64,000 nucleotides of DNA from Squalus acanthias (taxonomy: Eukaryota). The notes beneath the pieces were generated by a model, which did no database searches, was not told the origin of the DNA, and saw nothing but the letters and a program-made list of their open reading frames with translations. The position numbers were made by a program, and so were the translations under genes. This document shows positions 41,422 to 62,526 of this stretch, in pieces. Position 1 is the stretch's first letter; each line of letters starts with the position of its first letter. The DNA lies in the NCBI GenBank assembly GCA_030390025.1, contig CM059432.1, positions 10,850,001-10,914,000 on the forward strand, in the 5' to 3' direction.

Positions 41422-41458
41422 TCACCTGACGAAGGAGCAGCGCTCCGAAAGCTTGTGA
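41422..41458 (+). ncRNA. Minimal type I hammerhead ribozyme motif
   Basis: tcac-CTGACGA-a-GGAGC-agc-GCTCC-GAAA-gc-TT-gtga: stem I tcac/gtga, both core boxes, stem II, palindromic AAGCTT stem III as in Penelope-associated minimal hammerheads. Activity untested. Confidence 0.8.
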
Positions 41459-41493
41459 TTTCAAATAAAGCTGTTGGACTATAACCTGGTGTT
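41442..41493. repeat. 52-bp target-site direct repeat (also 48051-48102, 55225-55276, 62422-62473)
   Basis: GCTCCGAAAGCTTGTGATTTCAAATAAAGCTGTTGGACTATAACCTGGTGTT is identical at all four Tx1 junctions. Confidence 0.97.
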
Positions 41494-41558
41494 GATCTTT
41501 TTGGTTGAACCCAAATTTACTGTAAATCAAATTAAAACTTTAAATGAAACTTAATAAA

Positions 41559-44500
41559 TCAAATTAAAATTTGAAAGTCCGGGGTGACGATGCACTCCAG
41601 TCCCCGCGGCGCCCACCGGTCGCGGAAAAACTCAAGCGTGCCGGCGGACACCGCGTGCTCCATCTCCAGGGCCACCCGGGCGCGAACATGGCCGCGGAAG
41701 AGAGGCAGGCAATCGGGCCGAACGACCCCCTCGATCGCCCGCTGCCTGGACCAATTAATGGCTTTCTTGGCCAGGCCCAGGAGCAGTCCTACGAGGAGGT
41801 CCTCCGACCTACCCTCTCCCCTCCGCACCGGGTGACCGTAGATCAGGAGCGTGGGGCTGAAGTGCAACCAGAAATTGAGGAGCAGCCCCTTTAGATAATG
41901 AAAGAGGGGCTGCAACCTCTCACATTCAACATAAATGTGATAAACGGACTCCTCCAGGCCGCAAAAATGACAAGCAGCCTGGGAGTCCGTAAACCTACTT
42001 AAAATCCTATTGCACGGGACTGCTCCGTGCAACACCCTCCAGGCCAAGTCCCCAATAGAACAAGGGAAGACTCCCGCGTAGAGAGCCTTCCAATGGGGAC
42101 CTTCGCCTCCGCCGGACGGCAGGATGGTACGCCAAGGCGTGTCCGGACGGCAGACGAAGATGGCAAAGTGGAGAGTGTGCAGGAGCAGCCCGTACAGGAA
42201 ACGCCTCCGTGCGGATTGAAAGGGCACGGAGGGCATTTCTCCGAGAAGGCTCAAGTGGTGAGGCGGCGGCTCCCGAGGGAGGATTCGGGGCCGGGCGCCG
42301 ATAAGGAATTCCGTCCGAACGGGGGTCAGTTCGGACGGGATCGCCCCACGTGCTTGAGCCTCCTCGACACACCTAGTGGAGACGGGGCCCAGTGCCACTT
42401 TTAGCGACTCGATGGCTTTGACCGCGAGCCGGACGTTGACCCAAGACATGCGCCTCGCCAACTCCTCCGGCGCCATCCAGCCCGCTCCTCCGCCATCGAG
42501 CAGGTCCCCGACTCTGGTCACCTTACCGGGCACAGCCCTGCCCTCCGCCAGCCAGCCGAACCCGCGGTCGTGGAGGTGCGGATTCCTGAACAGCGGCTCC
42601 CGAAGGACGGCCGCCGCTCCTGACGGGGGAGAACTGCGCTCGGAGGCGACGCTGTTCCAAACCCATAGCAGTTCCTGGTAGAAGACAGGCAGCTCCCGCA
42701 GGCTGGCACGCGTGCCACCCACTCTCACAAACAGGAGCTGCGTGTCGTAATTGAGGCCGTGCAGCTGGCGGAAGAAATACGTCGCCAGCGCACGCCACCT
42801 AGGAGGATTCTCCACGTACAGGTATCTCTGCAGCGTCTGAAGACGGAAAGTCGCCGCCTGGGTGCGAAGGCACACCAGCGCCTGACCGCCCTCCCTAAGC
42901 GGGAGACTCAAAACCGCGGCAGAGACCCAGTGCTTCCTTTTGTCCCAGAAGAAGTCGACGAGCTTCTTCTGCATCTTGGCGACAAACGCAGGGGGAGGGA
43001 TCAAAGTGACCAACCGGTACCACAACATGGCGGCCACCAGCTGGTTTATGACCAGCGCTCGACCCCTGTAGGACAACACTCGGAGCAGTCCTGTCCAGCG
43101 CCCTAGGCGAGCGGTGACTTTGGCCTCCAGCTCTTGCCAGTTCGCCGGCCAGGCGTCCTCGGCCGGGCTGAGGTAGACTCCCAGGTAGAGGAGGTGCGTG
43201 GTGCTCCAGGCGAAAGGCCCGAACTCCTCCGGCAGGGAGTCCACCCGCCATGGGCCCACCAGGAGTCCAGAACATTTCTCCCAGTTGATCTTGGCGGAGG
43301 ATGCGTCCGAGTAAATCTGCTGGCATTCTCGCATCCTCCGCAAGTCGACGGGATCCGTGACCGCGAGGAGCACGTCATCGGCGTAAGCCGAGAGGACCAC
43401 CTCCACGCCCGGCCCTTGCAGAGCCAGTCCCGTCAACCTCTTCCGCAAGAGGCGCAGGAAAGGCTCCACGCAAACTGCGTATAACTGACCGGACATGGGG
43501 CATCCCTGACGCACTCCCCTCCCGAAGCGAAGGGGCGCCGTCAAAGACCCGTTAACTTTAATGAGACACTCCGCGGCGGCGTACAGAAGTCGGATCCGGG
43601 CGACGAAATGCGTCCCGAACCCGAACGCGCGCAGAGTCCCGAAAAGATACTCGTGATCCACCCTGTCGAACGCCTTCTCCTGATCCAGGGAAAGGAAGGC
43701 GACCGACAGACCAGCCCTCTGGGAATGGTGGACCAGGTCCCGGACCAGATGGATGTTATCGTGGATACTCCGGCCCGGGACCGTGTAGGACTGGTCGGGG
43801 TGGATCATGCGGGCCAGCACGGTGCCAAGGCGAGCAGACATAGCCCTGGCGAAAATTTTGTAGTCCGTGCTGAGGAGGGAGACCGGGCGCCAGTTCTTAA
43901 GTAGGCGGAGATCGCCCTTCTTGGGCAGCAGGACGATGACCGCCCTGCGCCAAGAGAGGGGCATCTCCCCGGTCGCCAGACTTTCCCCCAGGACCCGCGC
44001 GTAGTCGTCCCCCAAGACGTCCCAGAACGCCCTGTGGAACTCCACGGTCAGCCCGTCCAGCCCCGGGGACTTGCCCCTCGAGAGCTGGCGCAGGGCGCCG
44101 GTCAGCTCCGCCAGGCTTAGCGGAGCTTCTAAATTCTCGGCGCCCTCCGGGCCGACCTTCGGCAGGTCCTCCCACAAAACTCTGCGCGCATCCTCGCTGG
44201 ACGGATCCGAAGAGAACAGAGCCCCGTAATAGGCCCGGGCCTCCGCGCTGATGCCCTCCGGATCCGAGACCAGAGATCCGTCGTCGGCCAGCAGCCCCAA
44301 GAGCTGCTTACGGACCCCCCGTCTTTTTTCCAGCGAGTAGAAGAAGGGGGAGCCGCGGTCCAGGTCCCGCAGGAACTGGATCCGCGACCTCACGTACGCG
44401 CCTCGGGACCCGACCAGCTGCAGGTCCTTCAGCGCGCCCTTCTTCTCTTCGTACACCTTCCGCAGGGCCGGGTCCTCGACGACCTGACCGAGACGGGACT

Positions 44501-45459
44501 CCAGGTCGAGCACTTCTTTCTCCAATCGCCCGACCCGGGCCTCCCGCCTCTTGGTCGACCCCTTCGCGTACTCCTGACAGAAGACGCGGACGTGAGCCTT
44601 GCCCACGTCCCACCATAGCCTCAAGGAGGGGAAGCCTCCCCGCTTCCTTCTCCAGTCGGCCCAGAACCGGCGAAACGAATCCCGGAACCGCGCGTCCTCC
44701 AGCAGCAGGTTGTTAAAATGCCAGTACGCGGACCCCCCCCCGCGCGCGCAGCGGAGCGAGCTCCGCCCACACCAGGTGGTGGTCCGTGCACGGCACCGGC
44801 CGCATGGAAGCCGCCGGAACGCAGGAGACGTACGCCCGGGAAATGTAAAGGCGGTCGATTCTGGACCTTCCTCCTCCAGACCTCACGCTCGTGAAGGCGC
44901 TGGAGTCGGGATGGAGATTTCGCCAGACGTCCACCAAGTCGAAGGACCCGACCAGGTCCCGCAACTTCTCCATCGCCGCCGGGCTTCGCGGGGGACCCGA
45001 CTGGTCCCGCGCCTCGAGGGTACAATTGAAATCCCCCCCGAGGATGACGCACTCGCCCACGTCGATGGAGCCCAGAAGAGCGGACACTTCTCCGAAGAAG
45101 CGCACTTGCTGCGCACCGGTCCGGGGGGCGTACACGTTCACTAAATGGAGCGGCACGCCTCCCAGGCGAACAGTGACCTGGAGCAAGCGGCCCGGCACGT
45201 GCTCCTTGACCCTCAAGATCTCCGGCTGAAAATGCGGGGCCAGCAAGACAGCCACCCCGCAGGAATTGTTGGAGAGGTGACTCATGCTGACCCCTCCTTG
45301 CCACTCCAGGAGCCACGTGGCCTCGTCTCCCGGAACGGTGTGGGTTTCTTGCAGGAAGCACACCGCATATTTCCCGTCCCGAAGGACCGAGAAGTTATTG
45401 AATCTACGGCGCGCCTCCCTGCTGCCGTTGATGTTGAGGCTGGCTATGGTTATCTTCAT
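41559..45459 (-). pseudogene. Tx1 ORF2 copy 1, single +1 frameshift between endonuclease and RT
   Basis: C9 instead of C8 at 44733-44741 splits EN (44713-45477) from RT/CCHC (41559-44624); otherwise open. Confidence 0.8.
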
Positions 45460-45484
45460 CTCAGAAGCATAGTGCAACCTCTAC

Positions 45485-47050
45485 CTAACGGAGGGGAGGG
45501 AGGGCGGTCACTGACGACCGCCACTCCCTCAGCAGCCCAGTGTGGAACGTCTTGAGCCGACGCAGCTCGAGCCGGTCAACGTCCTTGTCCGCGCCCATGA
45601 TTTTAACGGCGGCGCGGACGGACACGACGAGCAGCGTCAGCTCCGACCACTTGTCGAGGGCCAGCCGGATCTTCTTGTGACGACCCTGGCTCATGGCCAT
45701 AAAATCCCGGAGTTCCCCTACGGGGATGAGGGGAGAGTCGGTGAAGGGCACGAGGGCGTCCATCACCTCGCTGCCGATGGACTCCAAATCGTCCTCGTTG
45801 CCCAACACCGAGTCCCCGTCCTCCTCCGGGAGGTCGTCACCGACGGCCGACCCGTCCGTCGCACGGGGTGCAGCGAACGGCTCGGCCGCACCGGCCGGCC
45901 CCGCCTCCGTCACGATCCCACCCCCAGGATCGGTGGCAGAGGAGTCCACCCTGGGCTCCTTCAGGGGCGCCGGGCCGGGAGGCGGCGGCGGCGGTTCGGG
46001 GCCCCCCCCCGCCTCAGGCGCCGGGGCGACCGGAGAAACCGGGGAGAAAATAATCCCAAATTCCTCCAGCACGTCCGGCGCCAACATCAGAGACGGAGTC
46101 AGGGGGCTTTCTGTCTCCCCGCCACCAACCTCCGACCCAGCGGGCTGGGGATTGCTACACTCCTCCACCAGGTCGAGCAGTCCCTGGGAGATATCTGGGT
46201 TATAAAAGGCGGGCTCGGCTTCAGCCTCTTTGGCCTCGCCCACCCCAGTCCCCAGGACGCCCGACCCGCCGGAGGCCGTGGTGGAGTTGGCCTCCGATTT
46301 CGACCGCGCATCCGTCGCCGTCGACGCGCGGACAGTATCAGGGGGAGGGGGGGCGGCGGCGCCAACCCTGGCCGCGCCAGGTGTCGTGGCGGCCTTGGAG
46401 GCGGGGCAGTTTTTGCGGACGTGCCCCACCTCCTTACAGGCGTAGCACCGCACGCCGTCCGAGGTCCAGAAGACGCGGTGGGCGGTCCCCCCGTGGAGCA
46501 CCGTGAACGCGCCGTCCGCGTCCTCCTCCCGCGCCAGCCGGACGAAAAGCTGGCGCCGGAAGGAGAAGACGTGCCGAAGGCTGGCTTCCCGGAAGCCGAG
46601 CGGGATGGGTGTGATCCCCGACCTCACCTCCCCCAGTTGACGTAGGTGGGGGAGGAGGAGCTCACCCGGAACAAAGGGCGGGACGTTGGAAACCACAATC
46701 CTTTGCGCGGTGGCCTCAAGGGGGTCCACCGGCAGGAAGGTCCCGCCCACGGTGAGCCCCTTCTCGATGGCCAGGGACACCGCCCGCTCCGACCCCAGGA
46801 AGAACACAGCCTTGCCGTACATTTTAGAGGCGGCGACGATGGCTGAAGGGCCGACAACCCCAGCCATGGCTTTAACGCACGCCTCTATAGTCATGTTGGG
46901 GTGAGTGTAGCTCTTGACCCCATTCTTCCTCGTAAGGAGGGTAAAAGGTGACGGGGTAACAGGAGGACTCGTGGCTGCGGCCGTGGCCGCGGCCGCCACG
47001 CTCGCATACGTCCTCGCTGCCCCCGCCACCGACGAAGATGTACTCGCCAT
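45485..47050 (-). CDS. Tx1 ORF1p copy 1 with 197-aa in-frame deletion
   Basis: 531 versus 728 aa in the ORF track; the deletion joins TTASGG to SGVLG at a CCCG microhomology (~46265). Confidence 0.85.
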   Translation of the reverse strand: MASTSSSVAGAARTYASVAAAATAAATSPPVTPSPFTLLTRKNGVKSYTHPNMTIEACVKAMAGVVGPSAIVAASKMYGKAVFFLGSERAVSLAIEKGLTVGGTFLPVDPLEATAQRIVVSNVPPFVPGELLLPHLRQLGEVRSGITPIPLGFREASLRHVFSFRRQLFVRLAREEDADGAFTVLHGGTAHRVFWTSDGVRCYACKEVGHVRKNCPASKAATTPGAARVGAAAPPPPDTVRASTATDARSKSEANSTTASGGSGVLGTGVGEAKEAEAEPAFYNPDISQGLLDLVEECSNPQPAGSEVGGGETESPLTPSLMLAPDVLEEFGIIFSPVSPVAPAPEAGGGPEPPPPPPGPAPLKEPRVDSSATDPGGGIVTEAGPAGAAEPFAAPRATDGSAVGDDLPEEDGDSVLGNEDDLESIGSEVMDALVPFTDSPLIPVGELRDFMAMSQGRHKKIRLALDKWSELTLLVVSVRAAVKIMGADKDVDRLELRRLKTFHTGLLREWRSSVTALPPLR

Positions 47051-48170
47051 AATGGAGGGTTCTTTAAGGGCTACACTCACCCCAAGTCACAGGCCTGAAG
47101 GTGTTAATGGCCTCGGTTTTTTTTTTTGTTTTAGTTTTCCCCTGAGCAGAGGGAGCTCTTAAATTGAAGGCACACCTCTCCCTTTAGTTGATTGAGTTGG
47201 GAGAGGGGCCTTCTCCCCTCTGCTCAATGGGTACTTAATTAAAAAGATAATGAGGTGCCTCTTAGAGAGAGAGAGGCAGAGAGAGACAAGAGACAAAGAG
47301 AGAGAGAGAGAGAGAGAGGGGGGGGTGGGAAGGAGGGAAGCCGCAAGGGCAGGGTCGCCACTCAGGATGGTGGGTGGGTGGGTGTTGGCAGGGGGGTGCA
47401 CTCTCCGATGTAATAAAAGTCTTTGGTGGTGGTCTTCTGGTGGGGGGAGAAGATGTCTTCACCTGGGACAGCTGGAGATGCCCAGGCTCAGTCCTGCACC
47501 AGGTCTTAACGATGCCCAATAATATTAAATTAATTGGGGACTTCACCTAGGCAGCTCCAGCTGTCCCAGGTCAGGCAATGGGAAAGGGGTGTTTAATATG
47601 GTGTGTGCGGCCTAGCTTTTACAAAAGCCACACACACACACACACCCCTTGGATGTTCCGGCCCTCTTCTTATCTTCTTTCCTCCCCCCACCTACAAAAC
47701 AAAGTCTCTGGGAGAGTGCACCAGAATCACACCCACCTGTAGCTGTTGTTCTTTCCTTCCTTCCTCCTTCCAAACAGATGATGGATGTTGTGTTGTTTTC
47801 TCCCCTCTCTCCCTCTCCTAAAATGGAGGCCAATTGAGGAGGCAGTGATGGGAAAGGCCTCTCCTCTGTTGTTAATGTCCTTGGCCTTCCTTTCTTTTCT
47901 TTCTCCTCTCCTGTCCTCTCTCTCCAGGCACCTCAGTTGTGGTTGTTGGTTGTGGGTTGGTGGTGGTCTGCTATCTGGTCTCCTTCTCCTTCTCCTCTTC
48001 CTGCTCACAGAGACCACCACTCTGCTGCTGCTGCTGCTCCTTCGTCAGCAGCTCCGAAAGCTTGTGATTTCAAATAAAGCTGTTGGACTATAACCTGGTG
48101 TTGCTCTTTTTGGTTTGTCAAATCAAAATTTACTGTAAATCAATTAAAACTTGAAATGAAACTTAACAAA

Positions 48171-51100
48171 TCAAATCAAAATTTGGAAGTCCGGGGTGAC
48201 GATGCACTCCAGTCCCCGCGGCGCCCACCGGTCGCGGAAAAACTCAAGCGTGCCGGCGGACACCGCGTGCTCCATCTCCAGGGCCACCCGGGCGCGAACA
48301 TGGCCGCGGAAGAGAGGCAGGCAATCGGGCCGAACGACCCCCTCGACCGCCCGCTGCCTGGACCAATTAATGGCTTTCTTGGCCAGGCCCAGGAGCAGTC
48401 CTACGAGGAGGTCCTCCGACCTACCCGCTCCCCTCCGCACCGGGTGACCGTAGATCAGGAGCGTGGGGCTGAAGTGCAACCAGAAATTGAGGAGCAGCCC
48501 CTTCAAATAATGAAAGAGGGGCTGCAACCTCTCACACTCAATATAAATGTGATAGACGGACTCCTCCAGGCCGCAGAAATGACAAGCAGCCTGGGAGTCC
48601 GTAAACCTACTTAAAATCCTATTGCACGGGACTGCTCCGTGCAACACCCTCCAGGCCAAGTCCCCAATAGAACAAGGGAAGACTCCCGCGTAGAGAGCCT
48701 TCCAATGGGGACCTTCGCCTCCGCCGGACGGCAGGATGGTACGCCAAGGCGTGTCCGGACGGCAGACGAAGATGGCAAAGTGGAGAGTGTGCAGGAGCAG
48801 CCCATACAGGAAACGCCTCCGTGCGGATTGAAAGGGCACGGAGGGCATTTCTCCGAGAAGGCTCAAGTGGTGAGGCGGCGGCTCCGAGGGAGGATTCGGG
48901 GCCGGGCGCCGATAAGGAATTCCGTCCGAACGGGGGTCAGTTCGGACGGGATCGCCCCACGTGCTTGAGCCTCCTCGACACACCTAGTGGAGACGGGGCC
49001 CAGTGCCACTTTTAGCGACTCGATGGCTTTGACCGCGAGCCGGACGTTGACCCAAGACATGCGCCTCGCCAACTCCTCCGGCGCCATCCAGCCCGCTCCT
49101 CCGCCATCGAGCAGGTCCCCGACTCTGGTCACCTTACCGGGCACAGCCCTGCCCTCCGCCAGCCAGCCGAACCCGCGGTCGTGGAGGTGCGGATTCCTGA
49201 ACAGCGGCTCCCGAAGGACGGCCGCCGCTCCTGACGGGGGAGAACTGCGCTCGGAGGCGACGCTGTTCCAAACCCATAGCAGTTCCTGGTAGAAGACAGG
49301 CAGCTCCCGCAGGCTGGCACGCGTGCCACCCACTCTCACAAACAGGAGCTGCGTGTCGTAATTGAGGCCGTGCAGCTGGCGGAAGAAATACGTCGCCAGC
49401 GCACGCCACCTAGGAGGATTCTCCACGTACAGGTATCTCTGCAGCGTCTGAAGACGGAAAGTCGCCGCCTGGGTGCGAAGGCACACCAGCGCCTGACCGC
49501 CCTCCCTAAGCGGGAGACTCAAAACCGCGGCAGAGACCCAGTGCTTCCTTTTGTCCCAGAAGAAGTCGACGAGCTTCTTCTGCATCTTGGCGACAAACGC
49601 AGGGGGAGGGATCAAAGTGACCAACCGGTACCACAACATGGCGGCCACCAGCTGGTTTATGACCAGCGCTCGACCCCTGTAGGACAACACTCGGAGCAGT
49701 CCTGTCCAGCGCCCTAGGCGAGCGGTGACTTTGGCCTCCAGCTCTTGCCAGTTCGCCGGCCAGGCGTCCTCGGCCGGGCTGAGGTAGACTCCCAGGTAGA
49801 GGAGGTGCGTGGTGCTCCAGGCGAAAGGCCCGAACTCCTCCGGCAGGGAGTCCACCCGCCATGGGCCCACCAGGAGTCCAGAACATTTCTCCCAGTTGAT
49901 CTTGGCGGAGGATGCGTCCGAGTAAATCTGCTGGCATTCTCGCATCCTCCGCAAGTCGACGGGATCCGTGACCGCGAGGAGCACGTCATCGGCGTAAGCC
50001 GAGAGGACCACCTCCACGCCCGGCCCTTGCAGAGCCAGTCCCGTCAACCTCTTCCGCAAGAGGCGCAGGAAAGGCTCCACGCAAACGGCGTATAACTGAC
50101 CGGACATGGGGCATCCCTGACGCACCCCCCTCCCGAAGCGAAGGGGCGCCGTCAAAGACCCGTTAACTTTAATGAGACACTCCGCGGCGGCGTACAGAAG
50201 TCGGATCCGGGCGACGAAATGCGTCCCGAACCCGAACGCGCGCAGAGTCCCGAAAAGATACTCGTGATCCACCCTGTCGAACGCCTTCTCCTGATCCAGG
50301 GAAAGGAAGGCGACCGACAGACCAGCCCTCTGGGAATGGTGGACCAGGTCCCGGACCAGATGGATGTTATCGTGGATACTCCGGCCCGGGACCGTGTAGG
50401 ACTGGTCGGGGTGGATCATGCGGGCCAGCACGGTGCCAAGGCGAGCAGACATAGCCCTGGCGAAAATTTTGTAGTCCGTGCTGAGGAGGGAGACCGGGCG
50501 CCAGTTCTTAAGTAGGCGGAGATCGCCCTTCTTGGGCAGCAGGACGATGACCGCCCTGCGCCAAGAGAGGGGCATCTCCCCGGTCGCCAGACTTTCCCCC
50601 AGGACGTCCCAGAACGCCCTGTGGAACTCCACGGTCAGCCCGTCCAGCCCCGGGGACTTGCCCCTCGAGAGCTGGCGCAGGGCGCCGGTCAGCTCCGCCA
50701 GGCTTAGCGGAGCTTCTAAATTCTCGGCGCCCTCCGGGCCGACCTTCGGCAGGTCCTCCCACAAAACTCTGCGCGCATCCTCGCTGGACGGATCCGAAGA
50801 GAACAGAGCCCCGTAATAGGCCCGGGCCTCCGCGCTGATGCCCTCCGGATCCGAGACCAGAGATCCGTCGTCGGCCAGCAGCCCCAAGAGCTGCTTACGG
50901 ACCCCCCGTCTTTTTTCCAGCGAGTAGAAGAAGGGGGAGCCGCGGTCCAGGTCCCGCAGGAACTGGATCCGCGACCTCACGTACGCGCCTCGGGACCCGA
51001 CCAGCTGCAGGTCCTTCAGCGCGCCCTTCTTCTCTTCGTACACCTTCCGCAGGGCCGGGTCCTCGACGACCTGACCGAGACGGGACTCCAGGTCGAGCAC

Positions 51101-52046: not shown

Positions 52047-52071
52047 CTCAGAAGCATAGTGCAACCTCTAC

Positions 52072-54228: not shown

Positions 54229-55349
54229 AATGGAGGGTTCTTTAAGGGCTACACTCACCCCAAGTCACAGGCCTGAAGGTGTTAATGGCCTCGGTTTTTT
54301 TTTTGTTTTAGTTTTCCCCTGAGCAGAGGGAGCTCTTAAATTGAAGGCACACCTCTCCCTTTAGTTGATTGAGTTGGGAGAGGGGCCTTCTCCCCTCTGC
54401 TCAATGGGTACTTAATTAAAAAGATAATGAGGTGCCTCTTAGAGAGAGAGAGGCAGAGAGAGACAAGAGACAAAGAGAGAGAGAGAGAGAGGGGGGGGTG
54501 GGAAGGAGGGAAGCCGCAAGGGCAGGGTCGCCACTCAGGATGGTGGGTGGGTGGGTGTTGGCAGGGGGGTGCACTCTCCGATGTAATAAAAGTCTTTGGT
54601 GGTGGTCTTCTGGTGGGGGAAGAAGATGTCTTCACCTGGGATAGCTGGAGATGCCCAGGCTCAGTCCTGCACCAGGTCTTAACGATGCCCAATTGGATTA
54701 AATTAATTGGGGAACTTCACCTAGGCAGCTCCAGCTGTCCCAGGTCAGGCAATGGGAAAGGGGTGTTTAATATGGTGTGTGCGGCCTAGCTTTTACAGAA
54801 GCCACACACACACACACCCCTTAGATGTTCCGGCCCTCTTCTTTTCTTCTTTCCTCCCCCCACCTACAAAACAAAGTCTCTGGGAGAGTGCACCAGAATC
54901 ACACCCACCTGTAGCTGTTGTTCTTTCCTTCCTTCCTCCTTCCAAACAGATGATGGTTGTTGGTGTTTTCTCCCCTCTCTCCCTCTCCTAAAATGGAGGC
55001 CAATTGAGGAGGCAGTGTGGAAAGGCCTCTCCTCTGGTGTTAATGTCCTTGGCCTTCCTTTCTTTTCTTTCTCCTCTCCTGTCCTCTCTCTCCAGGCACC
55101 TCAGTTGTGGTTGTTGGTTGTGGGTTGGTGGTGGTCTGCTATCTGGTCTCCTTCTCCTTCTCCTCTTCCTGCTCACAGAGACCACCACTCTGCTGCTGCT
55201 GCTGCTGCTGCTCCTTCGTCAGCAGCTCCGAAAGCTTGTGATTTCAAATAAAGCTGTTGGACTATAACCTGGTGTTTTTTTTTTTTGTTTTTTTTTGGAC
55301 AACACAAATTTACTGTAAATCAATTAAAATTTTAAATGAAACTTAATAA

Positions 55350-58300
55350 TCAAATCAAAATTTCGAAGTCCGGGGTGACGATGCACTCCAGCCCCCGCGG
55401 CGCCCACCGGTCGCGGAAAAACTCAAGCGTGCCGGCGGACACCGCGTGCTCCATCTCCAGGGCCACCCGGGCGCGAACATGGCCGCGGAAGAGAGGCAGG
55501 CAATCGGGCCGAACGACCCCCTCGACCGCCCGCTGCCTGGACCAATTAATGGCTTTCTTGGCCAGGCCCAGGAGCAGTCCTACGAGGAGGTCCTCCGACC
55601 TACCCGCTCCCCTCCGCACCGGGTGACCGTAGATCAGGAGCGTGGGGCTGAAGTGCAACCAGAAATTGAGGAGCAGCCCCTTCAAATAATGAAAGAGGGG
55701 CTGCAACCTCTCACATTCAACATAAATGTGATAAACGGACTCCTCCAGGCCGCAAAAATGGCAAGCAGCCTGGGAGTCCGTAAACCTACTTAAAATCCTA
55801 TTGCACGGGACTGCTCCGTGCAACACCCTCCAGGCCAAGTCCCCAATAGAACAAGGGAAGACTCCCGCGTAGAGAGCCTTCCAATGGGGACCTTCGCCTC
55901 CGCCGGACGGCAGGATGGTACGCCAAGGCGTGTCCGGACGGCAGACGAAGATGGCAAAGTGGAGAGTGTGCAGGAGCAGCCCGTACAGGAAACGCCTCCG
56001 TGCGGATTGAAAGGGCACGGAGGGCATTTCTCCGAGAAGGCTCAAGTGGTGAGGCGGCGGCTCCCGAGGGAGGATTCGGGGCCGGGCGCCGATAAGGAAT
56101 TCCGTCCGAACGGGGGTCAGTTCGGACGGGATCGCCCCACGTGCTTGAGCCTCCTCGACACACCTAGTGGAGACGGGGCCCAGTGCCACTTTTAGCGACT
56201 CGATGGCTTTGACCGCGAGCCGGACGTTGACCCAGGACATGCGCCTCGCCAACTCCTCCGGCGCCATCCAGCCCGCTCCTCCGCCATCGAGCAGGTCCCC
56301 GACTCTGGTCACCTTACCGGGCACAGCCCTGCCCTCCGCCAGCCAGCCGAACCCGCGGTCGTGGAGGTGCGGATTCCTGAACAGCGGCTCCCGAAGGACG
56401 GCCGCCGCTCCTGACGGGGGAGAACTGCGCTCGGAGGCGACGCTGTTCCAAACCCATAGCAGTTCCTGGTAGAAGACAGGCAGCTCCCGCAGGCTGGCAC
56501 GCGTGCCACCCACTCTCACAAACAGGAGCTGCGTGTCGTAATTGAGGCCGTGCAGCTGGCGGAAGAAATACGTCGCCAGCGCACGCCACCTAGGAGGATT
56601 CTCCACGTACAGGTATCTCTGCAGCGTCTGAAGACGGAAAGTCGCCGCCTGGGTGCGAAGGCACACCAGCGCCTGACCGCCCTCCCTAAGCGGGAGACTC
56701 AAAACCGCGGCAGAGACCCAGTGCTTCCTTTTGTCCCAGAAGAAGTCGACGAGCTTCTTCTGCATCTTGGCGACAAACGCAGGGGGAGGGATCAAAGTGA
56801 CCAACCGGTACCACAACATGGCGGCCACCAGCTGGTTTATGACCAGCGCTCGACCCCTGTAGGACAACACTCGGAGCAGTCCTGTCCAGCGTCCTAGGCG
56901 AGCGGTGACTTTGGCCTCCAGCTCTTGCCAGTTCGCCGGCCAGGCGTCCTCGGCCGGGCTGAGGTAGACTCCCAGGTAGAGGAGGTGCGTGGTGCTCCAG
57001 GCGAAAGGCCCGAACTCCTCCGGCAGGGAGTCCACCCGCCATGGGCCCACCAGGAGTCCAGAACATTTCTCCCAGTTGATCTTGGCGGAGGATGCGTCCG
57101 AGTAAATCTGCTGGCATTCTCGCATCCTCCGCAAGTCGACGGGATCCGTGACCGCGAGGAGCACGTCATCGGCGTAAGCCGAGAGGACCACCTCCACGCC
57201 CGGCCCTTGCAGAGCCAGTCCCGTCAACCTCTTCCGCAAGAGGCGCAGGAAAGGCTCCACGCAAACGGCGTATAACTGACCGGACATGGGGCATCCCTGA
57301 CGCACCCCCCTCCCGAAGCGAAGGGGCGCCGTCAAAGACCCGTTAACTTTAATCAGACACTCCGCGGCGGCGTACAGAAGTCGGATCCGGGCGACGAAAT
57401 GCGTCCCGAACCCGAATGCGCGCAGAGTCCCGAAAAGATACTCGTGATCCACCCTGTCGAACGCCTTCTCCTGATCCAGGGAAAGGAAGGCGACCGACAG
57501 ACCAGCCCTCTGGGAATGGTGGACCAGGTCCCGGACCAGATGGATGTTATCGTGGATGCTCCGGCCCGGGACCGTGTAGGACTGGTCGGGGTGGATCATG
57601 CGGGCCAGCACGGTGCCAAGGCGAGCAGACATAGCCCTGGCGAAAATTTTGTAGTCCGTGCTGAGGAGGGAGACCGGGCGCCAGTTCTTAAGTAGGCGGA
57701 GATCGCCCTTCTTGGGCAGCAGGACGATGACCGCCCTGCGCCAAGAGAGGGGCATCTCCCCGGTCGCCAGACTTTCCCCCAGGACCCGCGCGTAGTCGTC
57801 CCCCAAGACGTCCCAGAACGCCCTGTGGAACTCCACGGTCAGCCCGTCCAGCCCCGGGGACTTGCCCCTCGAGAGCTGGCGCAGGGCGCCGGTCAGCTCC
57901 GCCAGGCTTAGCGGAGCTTCTAAATTCTCGGCGCCCTCCGGGCCGACCTTCGGCAGGTCCTCCCACAAAACTCTGCGCGCATCCTCGCTGGACGGATCTG
58001 AAGAGAACAGAGCCCCGTAATAGGCCCGGGCCTCCGCGCTGATGCCCTCCGGATCCGAGACCAGAGATCCGTCGTCGGCCAGCAGCCCCAAGAGCTGCTT
58101 ACGGACCCCCCGTCTTTTTTCCAGCGAGTAGAAGAAGGGGGAGCCGCGGTCCAGGTCCCGCAGGAACTGGATCCGCGACCTCACGTACGCGCCTCGGGAC
58201 CCGACCAGCTGCAGGTCCTTCAGCGCGCCCTTCTTCTCTTCGTACACCTTCCGCAGGGCCGGGTCCTCGACGACTTGACCGAGACGGGACTCCAGGTCGA

Positions 58301-59249
58301 GCACTTCTTTCTCCAATCGCCCGACCCGGGCCTCCCGCCTCTTGGTCGACCCCTTCGCGTACTCCTGACAGAAGACGCGGACGTGAGCCTTGCCCACGTC
58401 CCACCATAGCCTCAAGGAGGGGAAGCCTCCCCGCTTCCTTCTCCAGTCGGCCCAGAACCGGCGAAACGAATCCCGGAACCGCGTGTCCTCCAGCAGCAGG
58501 TTGTTAAAATGCCAGTACGCGGACCCCCCCCGCGCGCGCAGCGGAGCGAGCTCCGCCCACACCAGGTGGTGGTCCGTGCACGGCACCGGCCGCATGGAAG
58601 CCGCCGGAACGCAGGAGACGTACGCCCGGGAAATGTAAAGGCGGTCGATTCTGGACCTTCCTCCTCCAGACCTCACGCTCGTGAAGGCGCTGGAGTCGGG
58701 ATGGAGATTTCGCCAGACGTCCACCAAGTCGAAGGACCCGACCAGGTCCCGCAACTTCTCCATCGCCGCCGGGCTTCGCGGGGGACCCGACCGGTCCCGC
58801 GCCTCGAGGGTACAATTGAAATCCCCCCCGAGGATGACGCACTCGCCCACGTCGATGGAGCCCAGAAGAGCGGACACTTCTCCGAAGAAGCGCACTTGCT
58901 GCGCACCGGTCCGGGGGGCGTACACGTTCACTAAATGGAGCGGCACGCCTCCCAGGCGAACAGTGACCTGGAGCAAGCGGCCCGGCACGTGCTCCTTGAC
59001 CCTCAAGATCTCCGGCTGAAAATGCGGGGCCAGCAAGACAGCCACCCCGCAGGAATTGTTGGAGAGGTGACTCATGCTGACCCCTCCTTGCCACTCCAGG
59101 AGCCACGTGGCCTCGTCTCCCGGAACGGTGTGGGTTTCTTGCAGGAAGCACACCGCATATTTCCCGTCCCGAAGGACCGAGAAGTTATTGAATCTACGGC
59201 GCGCCTCCCTGCTGCCGTTGATGTTGAGGCTGGCTATGGTTATCTTCAT
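55350..59249 (-). CDS. Tx1 ORF2p copy 3: APE endonuclease, reverse transcriptase, C-terminal CCHC finger (1299 aa from the first ATG)
   Basis: APE motifs SLNING, LQET, NVYAP, GGDFN, SRIDR, TDH; RT motifs KSPGLDG, WRPVSLL, DQEKAFD, RQGCP, YADD; zinc motif CHFC..HIYVEC; uninterrupted. The ORF track starts 18 nt earlier at a TTG. Confidence 0.95.
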   Translation of the reverse strand: MKITIASLNINGSREARRRFNNFSVLRDGKYAVCFLQETHTVPGDEATWLLEWQGGVSMSHLSNNSCGVAVLLAPHFQPEILRVKEHVPGRLLQVTVRLGGVPLHLVNVYAPRTGAQQVRFFGEVSALLGSIDVGECVILGGDFNCTLEARDRSGPPRSPAAMEKLRDLVGSFDLVDVWRNLHPDSSAFTSVRSGGGRSRIDRLYISRAYVSCVPAASMRPVPCTDHHLVWAELAPLRARGGSAYWHFNNLLLEDTRFRDSFRRFWADWRRKRGGFPSLRLWWDVGKAHVRVFCQEYAKGSTKRREARVGRLEKEVLDLESRLGQVVEDPALRKVYEEKKGALKDLQLVGSRGAYVRSRIQFLRDLDRGSPFFYSLEKRRGVRKQLLGLLADDGSLVSDPEGISAEARAYYGALFSSDPSSEDARRVLWEDLPKVGPEGAENLEAPLSLAELTGALRQLSRGKSPGLDGLTVEFHRAFWDVLGDDYARVLGESLATGEMPLSWRRAVIVLLPKKGDLRLLKNWRPVSLLSTDYKIFARAMSARLGTVLARMIHPDQSYTVPGRSIHDNIHLVRDLVHHSQRAGLSVAFLSLDQEKAFDRVDHEYLFGTLRAFGFGTHFVARIRLLYAAAECLIKVNGSLTAPLRFGRGVRQGCPMSGQLYAVCVEPFLRLLRKRLTGLALQGPGVEVVLSAYADDVLLAVTDPVDLRRMRECQQIYSDASSAKINWEKCSGLLVGPWRVDSLPEEFGPFAWSTTHLLYLGVYLSPAEDAWPANWQELEAKVTARLGRWTGLLRVLSYRGRALVINQLVAAMLWYRLVTLIPPPAFVAKMQKKLVDFFWDKRKHWVSAAVLSLPLREGGQALVCLRTQAATFRLQTLQRYLYVENPPRWRALATYFFRQLHGLNYDTQLLFVRVGGTRASLRELPVFYQELLWVWNSVASERSSPPSGAAAVLREPLFRNPHLHDRGFGWLAEGRAVPGKVTRVGDLLDGGGAGWMAPEELARRMSWVNVRLAVKAIESLKVALGPVSTRCVEEAQARGAIPSELTPVRTEFLIGARPRILPREPPPHHLSLLGEMPSVPFQSARRRFLYGLLLHTLHFAIFVCRPDTPWRTILPSGGGEGPHWKALYAGVFPCSIGDLAWRVLHGAVPCNRILSRFTDSQAACHFCGLEESVYHIYVECERLQPLFHYLKGLLLNFWLHFSPTLLIYGHPVRRGAGRSEDLLVGLLLGLAKKAINWSRQRAVEGVVRPDCLPLFRGHVRARVALEMEHAVSAGTLEFFRDRWAPRGLECIVTPDFEILI

Positions 59250-59274
59250 CTCAGAAGCATAGTGCAACCTCTAC

Positions 59275-61431
59275 CTAACGGAGGGGAGGGAGGGCGGTCA
59301 CTGACGACCGCCACTCCCTCAGCAGCCCAGTGTGGAACGTCTTGAGCCGACGCAGCTCGAGCCGGTCAACGTCCTTGTCCGCGCCCATGATTTTAACGGC
59401 GGCGCGGACGGACACGACGAGCAGCGTCAGCTCCGACCACTTGTCGAGGGCCAGCCGGATCTTCTTGTGACGACCCTGGCTCATGGCCATAAAATCCCGG
59501 AGTTCCCCTACGGGGATGAGGGGAGAGTCGGTGAAGGGCACGAGGGCGTCCATCACCTCGCTGCCGATGGACTCCAAATCGTCCTCGTTGCCCAACACCG
59601 AGTCCCCGTCCTCCTCCGGGAGGTCGTCACCGACGGCCGACCCGTCCGTCGCACGGGGTGCAGCGAACGGCTCGGCCGCACCGGCCGGCCCCGCCTCCGT
59701 CACGATCCCACCCCCAGGATCGGTGGCAGAGGAGTCCACCCTGGGCTCCTTCAGGGGCGCCGGGCCGGGAGGCGGCGGCGGCGGTTCGGGGCCCCCCCCC
59801 GCCTCAGGCGCCGGGGCGACCGGAGAAACCGGGGAGAAAATAATCCCAAATTCCTCCAGTACGTCCGGCGCCAACATCAGAGACGGAGTCAGGGGGCTTT
59901 CTGTCTCCCCGCCACCAACCTCCGACCCAGCGGGCTGGGGATTGCTACACTCCTCCACCAGGTCGAGCAGTCCCTGGGAGATATCTGGGTTATAAAAGGC
60001 GGGCTCGGCTTCAGCCTCTTTGGCCTCGCCCGCCCCAGTCCCCAGGACGCCCGACCCGGCGAGGAGCAACGGTTCAGGTTCTACATTTTCTTCCGCGGGT
60101 TGTTCCGCGCCCCCCCCCACGGGCAGGGTCTCTTCCCCATCCCCGGGAGGCACAGGTCGGACAGACTCGGCTGTCTCACCCTCCCGAGGGACAGACGACC
60201 CCTGCCGATCGCGCGCGACGATGACGGTGGTGGGGTGGGGCGCAGCACCCGCGGCGGGCGACTGCCCCCCTTTTGCGGAGGGACCTTCCTCCTCGCAGTC
60301 CTCCTGCTGGGGGCGGAGCTTTCTTTTTAACGTATTGGGGCCCGGAGAGGGGGAGGCCTCCATGTCTGCTGGGGCCTCCCTCTCTGCCCCCTTCCGACGA
60401 CTGGGTTTCTTGGGCCCCTCGGGCCCGAGCCCGGCCGCAGGTCTTGATTCAGCTGCCTCAGCAGTTGCGGTCACGGTCACGGGCCCGGGCACGAGGACCC
60501 CCCCAGTCTCATGCGTCCCGACCAACTCCGCGATATACTCGGGCGTGAGTTCGGTCAATTCCGATGTTTCCTCCGCGAGGGGATCCGCCCTTAGGTGTTT
60601 AGTTTTCCTACGCGCCTTCCTTCCCCCCGGACGCTCTCCCTCCTCCCCGCCGGAGGCCGTGGTGGTGTTGGCCTCCGATTTCGACCGCGCATCCGTCGCC
60701 GTCGACGCGCGGACAGTATCAGGGGGAGGGGGGGCGGCGGCGCCAACCCTGGCCGCGCCAGGTGTCGTGGCGGCCTTGGAGGCGGGGCAGTTTTTGCGGA
60801 CGTGCCCCACCTCCTTACAGGCGTAGCACCGCACGCCGTCCGAGGTCCAGAAGACGCGGTGGGCGGTCCCCCCGTGGAGCACCGTGAACGCGCCATCCGC
60901 GTCCTCCTCCCACGCCAGCCGGACGAAAAGCTGCCGCCGGAAGGAGAAGACGTGCCGAAGGCTGGCTTCCCGGAAGCCGAGCGGGATGGGTGTGATCCCC
61001 GACCTCACCTCCCCCAGTTGACGTAGGTGGGGGAGGAGGAGCTCACCCGGAACAAAGGGCGGGACGTTGGAAACCACAATCCTTTGCGCGGTGGCCTCAA
61101 GGGGGTCCACCGGCAGGAAGGTCCCGCCCACGGTGAGCCCCTTCTCGATGGCCAGGGACACCGCCCGCTCCGACCCCAGGAAGAACACAGCCTTGCCGTA
61201 CATTTTAGAGGCGGCGACGATGGCTGAAGGGCCGACAACCCCAGCCATGGCTTTAACGCACGCCTCTATAGTCATGTTGGGGTGAGTGTAGCTCTTGACC
61301 CCATTCTTCCTCGTAAGGAGGGTAAAAGGTGACGGGGTAACAGGAGGACTCGTGGCTGCGGCCGTGGCCGCGGCCGCCACGCTCGCATACGTCCTCGCTG
61401 CCCCCGCCACCGACGAAGATGTACTCGCCAT
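59275..61431 (-). CDS. Tx1 ORF1p copy 3 (718 aa from ATG): nucleic-acid-binding N-terminal region, CCHC zinc knuckle, long acidic/proline-rich region
   Basis: ASKMYGKAVFFL and VSNVPPF motifs typical of Tx1 ORF1; CYACKEVGHVRKNC knuckle; ends 25 nt before the ORF2 ATG. Confidence 0.92.
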   Translation of the reverse strand: MASTSSSVAGAARTYASVAAAATAAATSPPVTPSPFTLLTRKNGVKSYTHPNMTIEACVKAMAGVVGPSAIVAASKMYGKAVFFLGSERAVSLAIEKGLTVGGTFLPVDPLEATAQRIVVSNVPPFVPGELLLPHLRQLGEVRSGITPIPLGFREASLRHVFSFRRQLFVRLAWEEDADGAFTVLHGGTAHRVFWTSDGVRCYACKEVGHVRKNCPASKAATTPGAARVGAAAPPPPDTVRASTATDARSKSEANTTTASGGEEGERPGGRKARRKTKHLRADPLAEETSELTELTPEYIAELVGTHETGGVLVPGPVTVTATAEAAESRPAAGLGPEGPKKPSRRKGAEREAPADMEASPSPGPNTLKRKLRPQQEDCEEEGPSAKGGQSPAAGAAPHPTTVIVARDRQGSSVPREGETAESVRPVPPGDGEETLPVGGGAEQPAEENVEPEPLLLAGSGVLGTGAGEAKEAEAEPAFYNPDISQGLLDLVEECSNPQPAGSEVGGGETESPLTPSLMLAPDVLEEFGIIFSPVSPVAPAPEAGGGPEPPPPPPGPAPLKEPRVDSSATDPGGGIVTEAGPAGAAEPFAAPRATDGSAVGDDLPEEDGDSVLGNEDDLESIGSEVMDALVPFTDSPLIPVGELRDFMAMSQGRHKKIRLALDKWSELTLLVVSVRAAVKIMGADKDVDRLELRRLKTFHTGLLREWRSSVTALPPLR

Positions 61432-62473
61432 AATGGAGGGTTCTTTAAGGGCTACACTCACCCCAAGTCACAGGCCTGAAGGTGTTAATGGCCTCGGTTT
61501 TTTTTTTGTTTTAGTTTTCCCCTGAGCAGAGGGAGCTCTTAAATTGAAGGCACACCTCTCCCTTTAGTTGATTGAGTTGGGAGAGGGGCCTTCTCCCCTC
61601 TGCTCAATGGGTACTTAATTAAAAAGATAATGAGGTGCCTCTTAGAGAGAGAGAGGCAGAGAGAGACAAGAGACAAAGAGAGAGAGAGAGAGAGGGGGGG
61701 GTGGGAAGGAGGGAAGCCGCAAGGGCAGGGTCGCCACTCAGGATGGTGGGTGGGTGGGTGTTGGCAGGGGGGTGCACTCTCCGATGTAATAAAAGTCTTT
61801 GGTGGTGGTCTTCTGGTGGGGGGAGAAGATGTCTTCACCTGGGATAGCTGGAGATGCCCAGGCTCAGTCCTGCACCAGGTCTTAACGATGCCCAATTGGA
61901 TTAAATTAATTGGGGAACTTCACCTAGGCAGCTCCAGCTGTCCCAGGTCAGGCAATGGGAAAGGGGTGTTTAATATGGTGTGTGCGGCCTAGCTTTTACA
62001 GAAGCCACACACACACACACCCCTTAGATGTTCCGGCCCTCTTCTTTTCTTCTTTCCTCCCCCCACCTACAAAACAAAGTCTCTGGGAGAGTGCACCAGA
62101 ATCACACCCACCTGTAGCTGTTGTTCTTTCCTTCCTTCCTCCTTCCAAACAGATGATGGTTGTTGGTGTTTTCTCCCCTCTCTCCCTCTCCTAAAATGGA
62201 GGCCAATTGAGGAGGCAGTGTGGAAAGGCCTCTCCTCTGGTGTTAATGTCCTTGGCCTTCCTTTCTTTTCTTTCTCCTCTCCTGTCCTCTCTCTCCAGGC
62301 ACCTCAGTTGTGGTTGTTGGTTGTGGGTTGGTGGTGGTCTGCTATCTGGTCTCCTTCTCCTTCTCCTCTTCCTGCTCACAGAGACCACCACTCTGCTGCT
62401 GCTGCTGCTCCTTCGTCAGCAGCTCCGAAAGCTTGTGATTTCAAATAAAGCTGTTGGACTATAACCTGGTGTT

Positions 62474-62526
62474 GTGCGACTTCTCACATTTGTCCACCCC
62501 AGTCCAACACAGGCATCTCCACATCA
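62474..62526 (+). mobile_element. Right end of the Penelope-like element split by the Tx1 array
   Basis: GTGCGACTTCTCACATTTGTCCACCCCAGTCCAACACAGGCATCTCCACATCA continues the target as in the uninterrupted copy at 17267-17371. Confidence 0.85.

Follow-up and report, generated by a model that had tools for sequence, protein, structure and literature searches.

Site-specific LINEs of the APE type can build arrays, as R1 does in arthropod 28S rDNA, where its head-to-tail units are separated by a short copy of the target. The arrays described here from Squalus acanthias share this architecture with R1 and differ from it in clade (R1 is not a Tx1 element) and in target, which for R1 is an rRNA gene. 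Within the Tx1 clade, the type element Tx1L of Xenopus laevis has, like the present family, two ORFs with an APE endonuclease and reverse transcriptase (RT) in ORF2, the ORF2 products being 50% identical over 99%. Tx1L also takes one defined sequence of another mobile element as its target, which excerpts of Kojima (2015; PMC4494074) give as the non-autonomous piggyBac transposon Tx1D. In the shark the target is instead a retroelement, the terminal repeat of a Penelope-like element (PLE), in a cartilaginous-fish genome; target duplications are up to 52 nt long, and arrays of several copies are frequent.

The same excerpts place crocodilian Tx1-Mar in Mariner-N4_AMi, Tx1-8_Crp and Tx1-4_AMi in LTR retrotransposons, and Tx1-9_AMi in Harbinger, with SINEU as a passenger of crocodilian Tx1 families, and describe tandem Tx1 insertions that sandwich a target duplication, reading them as sequential insertions (PMC4494074). 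These crocodilian families, as far as that account goes, resemble ours in their fixed positions within transposons, their opposite orientation, their tandem insertions with target duplication and their target-derived 5' extensions. They differ from ours in target and in age of copies (85-87% alike there, about 99% here), and the shark family stands apart in its full-length 7-kb units and in neighbours that share 5' ends. The original prediction took the Penelope repeat to be a class of target not known to be described. The word 'Penelope' does not occur in Kojima (2015; PMC4494074), and our search of the literature (Repbase and Dfam lay outside it) found no Penelope target of a Tx1-clade element. 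What appears to be new is thus the Penelope target alone; the targeting of piggyBac, Mariner, Harbinger and LTR elements by Tx1 families, and tandem insertions sandwiching a duplication, were already described in the portions of PMC4494074 cited above. Minimal hammerheads occur in pseudo-LTRs of metazoan PLEs, according to parts of Cervera and de la Pena (2014; PMC4209133); their counterpart here is the host of the insertion and not the finding itself.

Three Tx1-clade elements in a Penelope-like tail

The window, which is the whole 64,000-nt stretch of S. acanthias DNA that was analysed, holds three APE- and RT-encoding elements of 6.6-7.2 kb on the minus strand (E1 to E3; unit sizes 6609, 7174 and 7197 nt), arranged as follows.

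17267..17371, plus strand: empty-site reference, an uninterrupted 105-nt copy of the 5'-truncated PLE tail
40944..41118, minus strand: inverted, tail-less partial PLE copy, head-to-head with the direct copy (arm of ~160 nt, gap-free and 100% identical to 41333-41493)
41300..41493 (start approximate), plus strand: direct PLE copy, left part up to the Tx1 insertion point
41422..41458, plus strand: minimal hammerhead motif in the direct PLE copy, by the motif criteria of PMC4209133
41442..41493, plus strand: 52-nt target piece, first copy (L'), whose 3' end is the putative priming site for E1
41494..48050, minus strand: E1, Tx1-clade element with a 591-nt deletion in ORF1 and with ORF2 split at a G8/G9 run
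48051..48102, plus strand: 52-nt target piece at the E1/E2 boundary
48103..55224, minus strand: E2, with ORF1 open (52072-54258) and ORF2 broken by a G9 run, a 1-nt deletion and a 24-nt in-frame deletion
55225..55276, plus strand: 52-nt target piece at the E2/E3 boundary
55277..62421, minus strand: E3, both ORFs open (ORF1 59275-61461, ORF2 55350-59267)
62422..62473, plus strand: 52-nt target piece upstream of E3 in the element's sense, continuous with the remaining PLE
62474..62526, plus strand: right part of the PLE, 15 nt (GTGCGACTTCTCACA) and a 38-nt tail ending ..CATCTCCACATCA
62527..63035, strand not assigned: 37-nt satellite hosting the whole PLE unit

As had been predicted, the three elements lie in the same orientation at one target position, each abutting CCTGGTGTT. 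This string occurs six times in the window against 0.86 expected (17310, 40959 on the minus strand, 41485, 48094, 55268 and 62465), and the 52-nt piece that ends in it (GCTCC...CCTGGTGTT) recurs at all four junctions listed. The reverse-complemented 3' end of an element directly follows pieces one to three, and the remaining target follows piece four. Removal of the elements restores the target, again as foreseen: a scripted join of 41442-41493 to 62474-62526 matches the uninterrupted copy at 17267-17371 in 103 of 105 positions; the inverted one (40944-41010) agrees with the restored target up to GTGCAACTTCTCACA. Further empty PLE-tail copies are seen genome-wide. Within the inverted copy the Tx1 site has one mismatch (GTGCAAC) and is unoccupied; that copy stops at ..CTCACA, as do inverted copies at other loci. 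The 37-nt satellite is also found left of 40944, and AGTGTATTC is likely a target duplication of the PLE within it.

E3 alone has both ORFs open, in agreement with the claim that the third copy is intact. Its ORF1 product (728 aa) carries a zf-CCHC knuckle (Pfam 2.3e-4, 21.5 bits where the cut-off is 20.8), and its ORF2 product (1305 aa) matches Exo_endo_phos at residues 12-233 (1.7e-11), RVT_1 at 518-767 (8.5e-38) and, weakly, zf-RVT. A zinc-knuckle ORF1 upstream is a defining feature of the Tx1 clade. ORF2 is 50% identical at 99% coverage to the X. laevis 'Transposon TX1 uncharacterized 149 kDa protein' and 52% identical to a 403-member sea-turtle cluster, coverage again being 99%. Protein similarity and domain content thus support the proposed assignment of the family to the Tx1 clade of non-LTR retrotransposons (L1 group). 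With copies ~99% alike, at least one of them with both ORFs open, the family is young by the evidence of its sequences; the open ORFs suggest that E3 may be active, and the frameshifts at the G8/G9 run in ORF2 of E1 and E2 could be assembly errors. At its 5' end E3 opens with the target's CTGACGAAGGAGC box, copied over 15 nt in inverted form, after which comes (CAG)n. A hammerhead on the element's sense strand at this junction was considered and rejected, as the inverted box has neither a matching helix II strand nor a GAAA after it.

The Penelope-like target and its hammerhead motif

As target the elements use the terminal ~100 nt of a PLE, which comprises an RT ORF, a GIY-YIG-like segment, a minimal hammerhead motif, a 38-nt tail and an inverted partner. 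Pfam searches of ORFs upstream of the tail gave RVT_1 matches of 4.7e-10 and 3.7e-14. The former lies at locus L069, where a GIY-YIG-like segment in the next frame follows the RT ORF and the hammerhead tail is downstream of both; this longer locus was needed, the ORFs upstream of the tail at L040 having returned nothing useful from Pfam. The 199-aa frame after the RT is GIY-YIG-like by language-model features only (score 0.97; 20 matches carry PF01541), the RT being in a different frame in the copy examined, and Pfam matched no GIY-YIG domain in the ORFs upstream of the tail at L040 and L069. Known traits of PLEs include 5' truncation, a neighbouring inverted copy that is itself 5'-truncated, and at one end a tail of 30-40 bp (PMC8557442). 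Truncation, inverted partner and tail are all found here: direct copies end in ..CATCTCCACATCA, inverted partners stop at ..CTCAC(A/T) without the last 38 nt, and target duplications flank the direct/inverted pairs.

The candidate hammerhead at 41422..41458 consists of stem I (TCAC/GTGA), CTGACGA, a bulged A, stem II (GGAGC-AGC-GCTCC), GAA and the palindromic AGCT, with predicted cleavage after T41454, 39 nt 5' of the Tx1 site. These elements correspond at motif level to the minimal PLE hammerhead as defined in the consulted sections of PMC4209133, namely CUGANGA, a nucleotide between 9 and 10.1, a G10.1-C11.1 pair, GAAA and palindromic 15.2-16.2. Among 74 motif matches the bulged A is present in all 74, helix II has at least 4 bp in 66 and AGCU is palindromic; helix variation across copies is mostly one-sided (G-U). 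Rfam matched no family in the whole window at gathering score and no hammerhead in 40900-41520 at E<=10, so the ribozyme call is one made by motif criteria; the lone Rfam match in that interval, SNORA67, was dismissed as chance. Published minimal PLE hammerheads cleave poorly in vitro, according to the same sections (PMC4209133). The description of the target as a Penelope terminal repeat beside a predicted ribozyme, made at first from the letters of the window, is supported by the RT, the inverted partners, the 38-nt tail and the motif.

Site preference and target duplications

We surveyed 3' ends with a query wholly within the element, so that the sample was not chosen by its flank, and obtained 30 ends (29 other loci). 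Each sample took the best-scoring 40 from among 402-1188 first-look candidates and so represents the youngest, most window-like copies; the candidate counts (68, 402, 1150 and 1188) are not copy numbers. Among the 3' ends (best-scoring 40 of 402), 28 of 30 adjoin AACACCAGGTTATAG.., one lies at a second AACACC site within the same PLE tail and one is at AACAC followed by unrelated DNA. The target piece precedes all 20 sampled 5' ends (best-scoring 40 of 1150). Most sampled copies share one flanking sequence at both ends, where the criterion for a target-specific LINE in the cited excerpts of Kojima (2015; PMC4494074) is >20% of flanks. This tabulation of the youngest copies bears out the expectation of genome-wide site specificity and supports, from sequence, a family specific for the last ~100 nt of a PLE.

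Such uniform flanks could also arise by passive spread, the Tx1 copies having travelled with the PLE or with segmental duplications. An unusual target-piece variant (CAGCTTGATTTG) is common to five loci (L029, L030, L031, L035 and L036), and another (CAGTTGTATTTG) occurs at two places on contig C19, as passive spread would predict. The host PLEs, however, vary in subfamily, in structure (tailed or tail-less), in their own target duplications and in outer flanks, and truncated Tx1 copies have duplications of their own at the same site. In public runs the PLE tail is also covered far more deeply than the Tx1 5' region (roughly 3474-fold for the tail and 5-fold for the 5' region in run X11), so that most targets are empty. 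We consider passive spread scarcely credible. Separately, one 61-nt contig from a public run nearly spans the 5' junction, with fewer than 31 letters on one side.

The flanks of solo copies bear on how insertion proceeds. In one (L077/L093) the flanking repeats are identical at 52 of 52 positions, including a rare PLE variant, and in four others the pieces match at 51/52, 51/52, 49/52 (L079/L098) and 42/45 (L078/L097). Copies 5'-truncated to 790 nt and 417 nt carry 14-15-nt duplications of the local target, and junctions of three lengths (15, 45 and 52 nt) are found among the sampled copies. Within array A, about seven positions distinguish the internal 45-nt pieces from the target at the end of the array. 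Truncated copies with duplications at independent loci are what target-primed reverse transcription predicts, and these together with the 52/52 solo duplication fit independent target-primed insertion. Since the flanking pieces are not always identical, plain staggered-cut duplication cannot cover all cases, and some 5' pieces may have been carried in from the source copy.

A more general form of this last idea is that the 5' target piece is part of the transcript, transduced from the PLE flanking the source copy and annealing to the new target, and is not a duplication at all. Where the local target has diverged (L078/L097, L079/L098 and array A), the 5' pieces resemble the majority variant, as transduction would predict. 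The 15-nt inverted box beside the piece has two variants, CTGACGAAGG and CTGACTGAGG; the latter, which the pattern used to find the 74 PLE hammerhead motifs was unable to match, is absent from that set and was probably passed on through RNA. Tx1-mobilised elements with opposite-orientation 5' extensions from flanking target are also described in the excerpted text of Kojima (2015; PMC4494074). Yet the rare PLE-subfamily variant on both sides of L077/L093, the local-target repeats of truncated copies, which could not carry a transduced piece, and the coexistence of three junction lengths all speak against transduction, and as a general explanation we find it possible though doubtful.

We hold it highly probable that this is a young Tx1 family site-specific for the PLE tail, which enters by target-primed insertion, regenerates its target and forms arrays in which local copying also occurs. 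The nick position and the order of events are those that we infer. The endonuclease would nick the sense strand of the PLE behind CCTGGTGTT, at a point that lies 39 nt 3' of where the hammerhead is predicted to cleave and some 15 nt short of the tail. Reverse transcription of an RNA ending ..CCAAAAAGA(T/G)C would be primed by the 3'-OH so released, the match probably aided by AACAC, which is also common to both exceptional insertions; priming from a sense-strand nick would account for the element lying antisense to the PLE. Joining of the 5' end 14-52 nt away would then leave a direct repeat of the target piece, in full-length copies usually of 52 nt and ending in the loop of hammerhead stem II. 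This upstream repeat and the untouched right half would together rebuild the full target, so that further copies could enter and the array grow.

Array growth and its implications

About half to two thirds of sampled ends, again those of the best-scoring copies, are inside arrays: 14 of 20 5' ends adjoin another element, as do 16 of the 28 3' ends at the usual site (from 30 sampled). The three 3' ends of the window array differ (..GGGTTCAACCAAAAAGATC, ..TTTGATTTGACAAACCAAAAAGAGC and ..GTGTTGTCCAAAAAAAAACAAAAAAAAAAAA), which upholds the original observation of different 3' tails; they are subfamily-specific 3' UTR ends, each recurring elsewhere in the genome, and not free poly(A). More broadly, 3' ends in arrays belong to subfamilies common to several arrays. 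Over the 3' 480 nt, E1 to E3 differ among themselves at 15-19 positions (E2 and E3 at 19), whereas E2 differs from A1, A2 and C3 of other arrays at only 1-3 and E3 from C0 at five. A tree likewise groups E2 with a copy on another contig and not with E3 (84/85), in a sample drawn with an E1-derived query and hence biased towards E1-like copies; ranking E1 to E3 by age from branch lengths was abandoned because of this bias. As the 3' ends represent three subfamilies and each resembles copies of other arrays more closely, the three elements are not one simple duplication, and the differing subfamilies argue for serial insertion.

The 5' ends behave differently. Over the 5' 480 positions there are no differences between E2 and E3 or among A1, A2 and A3, against 7-30 between arrays, and each array has 5' junction types and target-piece variants of its own. 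E2 and E3 differ by two substitutions in their first 2588 columns (~2.6 kb), A2 and A3 agree at every column before 697 but differ at 77 positions beyond it, and A1 and A2 differ at seven of about 7175 positions. From the near-identical 5' regions of E2 and E3 and the array-specific junctions, it follows that a local copying process acts beside serial insertion, which amends the earlier picture of serial insertions in place of one duplication. This process (gene conversion, unequal exchange, or completion of short cDNA on a resident neighbour) would spread the 5' end, the junction and the target-piece variant. The frameshift shared by E1 and E2 was set aside as weak proof of local copying, as it is a G8/G9 homopolymer difference that could reflect recurrence or assembly error.

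Local copying taken to its limit would mean one insertion that later multiplied in place, its flanking target repeats allowing slippage or unequal exchange, with no repeated targeting. The A1/A2 pair is indeed better fitted by local duplication than by two insertions, neighbours share 5' ends, junction types and target-piece variants, and tandem truncated copies at L023 have one common truncation point. Against this, E1 to E3 differ pairwise by 44-49 substitutions (99.3-99.4% identity) in clustered blocks, and the 3' ends have their closer matches in other arrays. After a single unequal exchange, moreover, the middle unit should have the same 5' end as the unit downstream of it, but E2 shares that of E3, upstream. 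We regard local multiplication as the sole source of these arrays as quite improbable, and return to serial insertion with local copying.

One way of joining the two would be for a new target-primed cDNA, from any source RNA, to start at the rebuilt site, often to stop short of the end of that RNA, and to be completed on the unit already in place downstream. From this neighbour the new copy would inherit the 5' part, the junction and the target piece, with a single switch point, and the observed mosaicism would place such points at about column 2588 (E3/E2) and column 697 (A2/A3). We put this forward tentatively and think it rather unlikely; if true, it would amount to self-templated production of full-length, promoter-bearing LINE copies from truncated intermediates and would account for long arrays of a site-specific LINE.

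These findings add a Penelope-class retroelement to the targets chosen by Tx1-clade LINEs. Because its last ~100 nt are kept in every copy of a 5'-truncating retroelement, the PLE tail would be the most numerous landing pad in the genome; the choice looks economical, the site being probably also the least harmful. The sharing of 5' ends within arrays bears on how LINE arrays evolve; it also matters to those who annotate and assemble shark genomes, in which 7-kb arrays of 99% identity are difficult to resolve. A young family with clean junctions, solo and truncated copies, arrays and at least one open-ORF copy makes a good natural system in which to study the reading of a long target by an APE-type endonuclease and the joining of 5' ends.

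A three-unit Tx1 array in the tail of a Penelope-like element

The word CCTGGTGTT occurs six times in the 64-kb window (0.86 expected by chance), and four of these occurrences close a 52-nt piece, GCTCCGAAAGCTT...CCTGGTGTT, ending at 41493, 48102, 55276 and 62473. Each of the first three pieces is directly followed by a reverse-complemented retroelement 3' end, and the fourth by GTGCGACTTCTCACA and then 38 further bases. The elements, E1 (41494..48050), E2 (48103..55224) and E3 (55277..62421), form minus-strand units of 6609, 7174 and 7197 nt that differ pairwise by 44-49 substitutions, with 591 nt missing from E1. Joining 41442-41493 to 62474-62526 restores a target that equals 17267-17371 at 103/105 positions and is also matched by the inverted copy 40944-41010 over its whole extent. 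The observation in the original prediction, that all units end at one position of a single target restored by their removal, therefore stands.

Arms of the Penelope-like element (PLE) unit that holds the array
40944-41118, minus strand: inverted PLE arm, partner of the direct arm
about 41300-41493 plus 62474-62526, plus strand: direct PLE arm, interrupted by the Tx1 units

The whole PLE unit is embedded in a 37-nt satellite, AGTGTATTCTGTGTGTGTGAGAATCAGACACACTGCC, its host, which lies at 62527-63035 and left of 40944; AGTGTATTC is the likely 9-nt target duplication of this PLE. In the inverted arm the Tx1 site differs at one base (GTGCAAC versus GTGCGAC) and is unoccupied, while three elements sit in the direct copy at a distance of 400 nt. 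Two further RVT_1 open frames, at 20469-21860 (minus strand, 9.1e-31) and 37095-38072 (minus strand, 1.7e-10), mark additional retroelements in the window.

E3 is intact, as had been predicted, with ORF1 (728 aa, with a CCHC knuckle) and ORF2 (1305 aa, with an APE-type endonuclease at 1.7e-11, a reverse transcriptase (RT) at 8.5e-38 and a weak zf-RVT match) both open. E1 is broken by its 591-nt deletion, located in ORF1, and E2 by 1-nt and 24-nt deletions in ORF2; a G9 run replaces G8 in both, which could be an assembly error. Among six fully read units, both ORFs are open in E3 and ORF2 is open in two more (A1 and A2, of array A elsewhere in the genome). Across 99% of its length ORF2 shares 50% identity with the Tx1 149-kDa protein of Xenopus laevis; its identity to an abundant cluster from sea turtle is 52%. 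Judged by sequence, assignment to a real Tx1-clade family is well supported. Public runs assigned to four or more coded organisms include contigs that match the element's 5' UTR at 90% or more (query 61900-62560), and the contigs of these runs cover the PLE tail at a depth far above that of the 5' UTR; the family or close relatives may be present in more than one species.

The target and its predicted hammerhead

Empty target copies at other genomic loci are retro-copies with truncated 5' ends. They all end ..GGCATCTCCACATCA, have their own target duplications at their flanks, and often face, head-to-head, a partial copy in inverted orientation that breaks off at ..CTCAC(A/T), without the last 38 nt. 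PMC8557442 describes the same structure for PLEs, with a 5'-truncated copy in inverted orientation and, at one end, a tail of 30-40 bp. Upstream of the tail, a longer copy (L069) contains an RT ORF (RVT_1, 4.7e-10), followed in the next frame by a 199-aa segment that language-model features group, with a high score, with GIY-YIG proteins; Pfam scored no GIY-YIG in the PLE ORFs, this segment included.

Upstream of the insertion point lies an RNA motif (CTGACGA, a bulged A, GGAGC-AGC-GCTCC, GAA and a palindromic AGCT) that has all four features of the minimal PLE hammerhead set out in PMC4209133. The bulged A is present in 74/74 motif copies and helix II has at least 4 bp in 66/74, its variation consisting mostly of one-sided changes. 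Of the predicted Penelope terminal repeat next to a ribozyme, the Penelope part is supported by structure and RT; the ribozyme is a predicted motif, and Rfam gave no hammerhead match in the window or the region around the motif. We further note that the 105-nt PLE tail copy at 17267-17371, inside another repeat with CATG at its flanks, begins at GCTCC in the loop of helix II, the same base where the 52-nt Tx1 duplication ends. The hairpin may stall the reverse transcriptases of both the PLE and the Tx1 element.

Site specificity and insertion junctions

A 3' query wholly inside the element (41575-41900) gave 402 candidates, of which the best 40 were scored; the first 30 loci minus the window itself comprise 29 loci and 30 3' ends. 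In this sample 28/30 3' ends adjoin AACACCAGGTTATAG... Of the two exceptions, one occupies another AACACC site of the same PLE tail, in opposite orientation, and one is followed by AACAC and then unrelated DNA. With the 5' UTR as query (best 40 of 1150 candidates, flanks fetched for 20, window copies excluded), the target piece precedes 20/20 5' ends. Both samples consist of the top-scoring and hence youngest copies; among these, the genome-wide flanks of both termini are mostly the same PLE target, and the predicted site specificity is supported.

Spread of the Tx1 elements as passengers is very unlikely, since host PLE copies differ in subfamily, presence of the tail and outer flanks. Tail-less PLE copies serve as targets at L077, L078 and L081, and the PLE tail is therefore dispensable for targeting. 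At L023 (G000:C13:58562111-58565436), the second site in the PLE tail, AACAC(C/T)GGCATCT in opposite orientation, holds two tandem copies, both truncated at unit position 6420; next to them, the usual site is taken by a copy of 417 nt.

The element 3' end is ..CCAAAAAGA(T/G)C, directly followed by target AACACC, and AACAC is kept at both exceptional insertions. The differing 3' tails of the original prediction are real as subfamily differences, but they are family-specific ends and not free poly(A). The first nick would cut the PLE sense strand after CCTGGTGTT, and the AACACC/AACAC bases would aid priming of reverse transcription.

Two truncated copies (790 and 417 nt) have the same 14-15-nt target duplication, AACACCAGGTTATA(G), and the solo full-length copy L077/L093, whose PLE host is diverged, is flanked on either side by one and the same rare variant (52/52); all three show true target duplication. 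Among full-length copies, the 52-nt junction class has its end in the helix II loop, at GGAGC; it is followed by a 15-nt inverted copy of the target's CTGACGAAGGAGC box and then (CAG)n at 13/20 5' ends and lacks the box at 4/20; a 45-nt junction accounts for 2/20 and a 15-nt junction for 1/20. The box has two variants and was probably passed on through RNA, because the variant CTGACTGAGG is absent from the 74 PLE hammerhead matches, although the pattern needed CTGA.GA and could not match CTGACTGAGG. Some 5' target pieces may have been brought from the source copy, and not made by simple duplication, since the flanking pieces of four other solo copies agree imperfectly (51/52, 51/52, 49/52 and 42/45) and in array A about 7 of 45 positions separate the internal pieces from the terminal target; the true duplications at the truncated copies and L077/L093 argue against this. 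Pieces of such origin would resemble the target-derived 5' extensions of Tx1-mobilised elements described in PMC4494074.

The Tx1 clade is noted for target specificity. In PMC4494074 and PMC4640811, Tx1L targets the piggyBac-type Tx1D, Keno U2 genes, Kibi and Koshi microsatellites, and crocodilian Tx1 families Mariner, Harbinger and LTR elements, and tandem insertions sandwiching a duplication are interpreted as sequential insertion. The word 'Penelope' is absent from PMC4494074, and a full-text literature search (Repbase, Dfam and subscription journals lying outside it) found no paper on a LINE, of the Tx1 clade or any other, that targets a PLE, and no description of the present family in sharks. 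The claim of a new target class is thereby narrowed: other transposons as Tx1 targets and sandwiched tandem insertions are already known, and the PLE target appears to be the new part. The family itself, a young member of the Tx1 clade that is specific for this site and apparently adds a class of target, is real and well supported.

Probable serial insertion and local copying in arrays

Another element adjoins 16 of the 28 usual-site 3' ends (30 sampled) and 14/20 5' ends, and by the coordinates of the best matches of both queries there are many arrays in which units recur about every 7.17 kb; in this family, arrays are the rule. Re-insertion would be explained by the upstream repeat and the intact right half, which together would rebuild the target.

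Comparison of four arrays over 480 nt per end indicates that 3'-end subfamilies are common to different arrays and mixed inside them. The E2 3' end has 1-3 differences from A1, A2 and C3 (C3 belonging to a further array) and 19 from E3, that of E3 has 5 from C0, and the mean 3'-end distance is 0.0188 within arrays versus 0.0210 between. In a tree of 1585 nt, the partner of E2 is a copy from a different contig (84/85), and E1 stands apart. The mixed subfamilies and the placement of E2 support array members being serial insertions from different sources. Differences among array members are clustered in blocks (41494-62421; array A, G000:C2:132262700-132284475), with E1-private differences in unit columns 240-641 and E2-private ones in 2589-3125 and 6509-6776; the elements are mosaics of subfamily haplotypes.

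The predicted serial insertion, as opposed to one duplication, holds for the 3' ends but is qualified by the 5' ends, which neighbours share, probably through local copying. Within E2/E3, A1/A2/A3 and C2/C4/C5, 0-1 of 480 5'-end positions differ, against 7-30 between arrays, and each array has its own junction type and its own variant of the target piece. Between A2 and A3 there is no difference as far as column 697 and there are 77 beyond it; A1 and A2 have only 7 differences in all, and E2 and E3 have 2 differences in the first 2588 columns and 43 in the rest. Had one unequal exchange occurred, a chimera would be expected with the 5' part of its downstream neighbour and the 3' part of its upstream one; this does not fit the window, since E2 has its 5' part in common with the upstream E3. 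Either gene conversion or the finishing of a short cDNA on the unit already resident downstream would fit. That neighbours with unrelated bodies have their 5' ends in common is the single feature that may open new ground.
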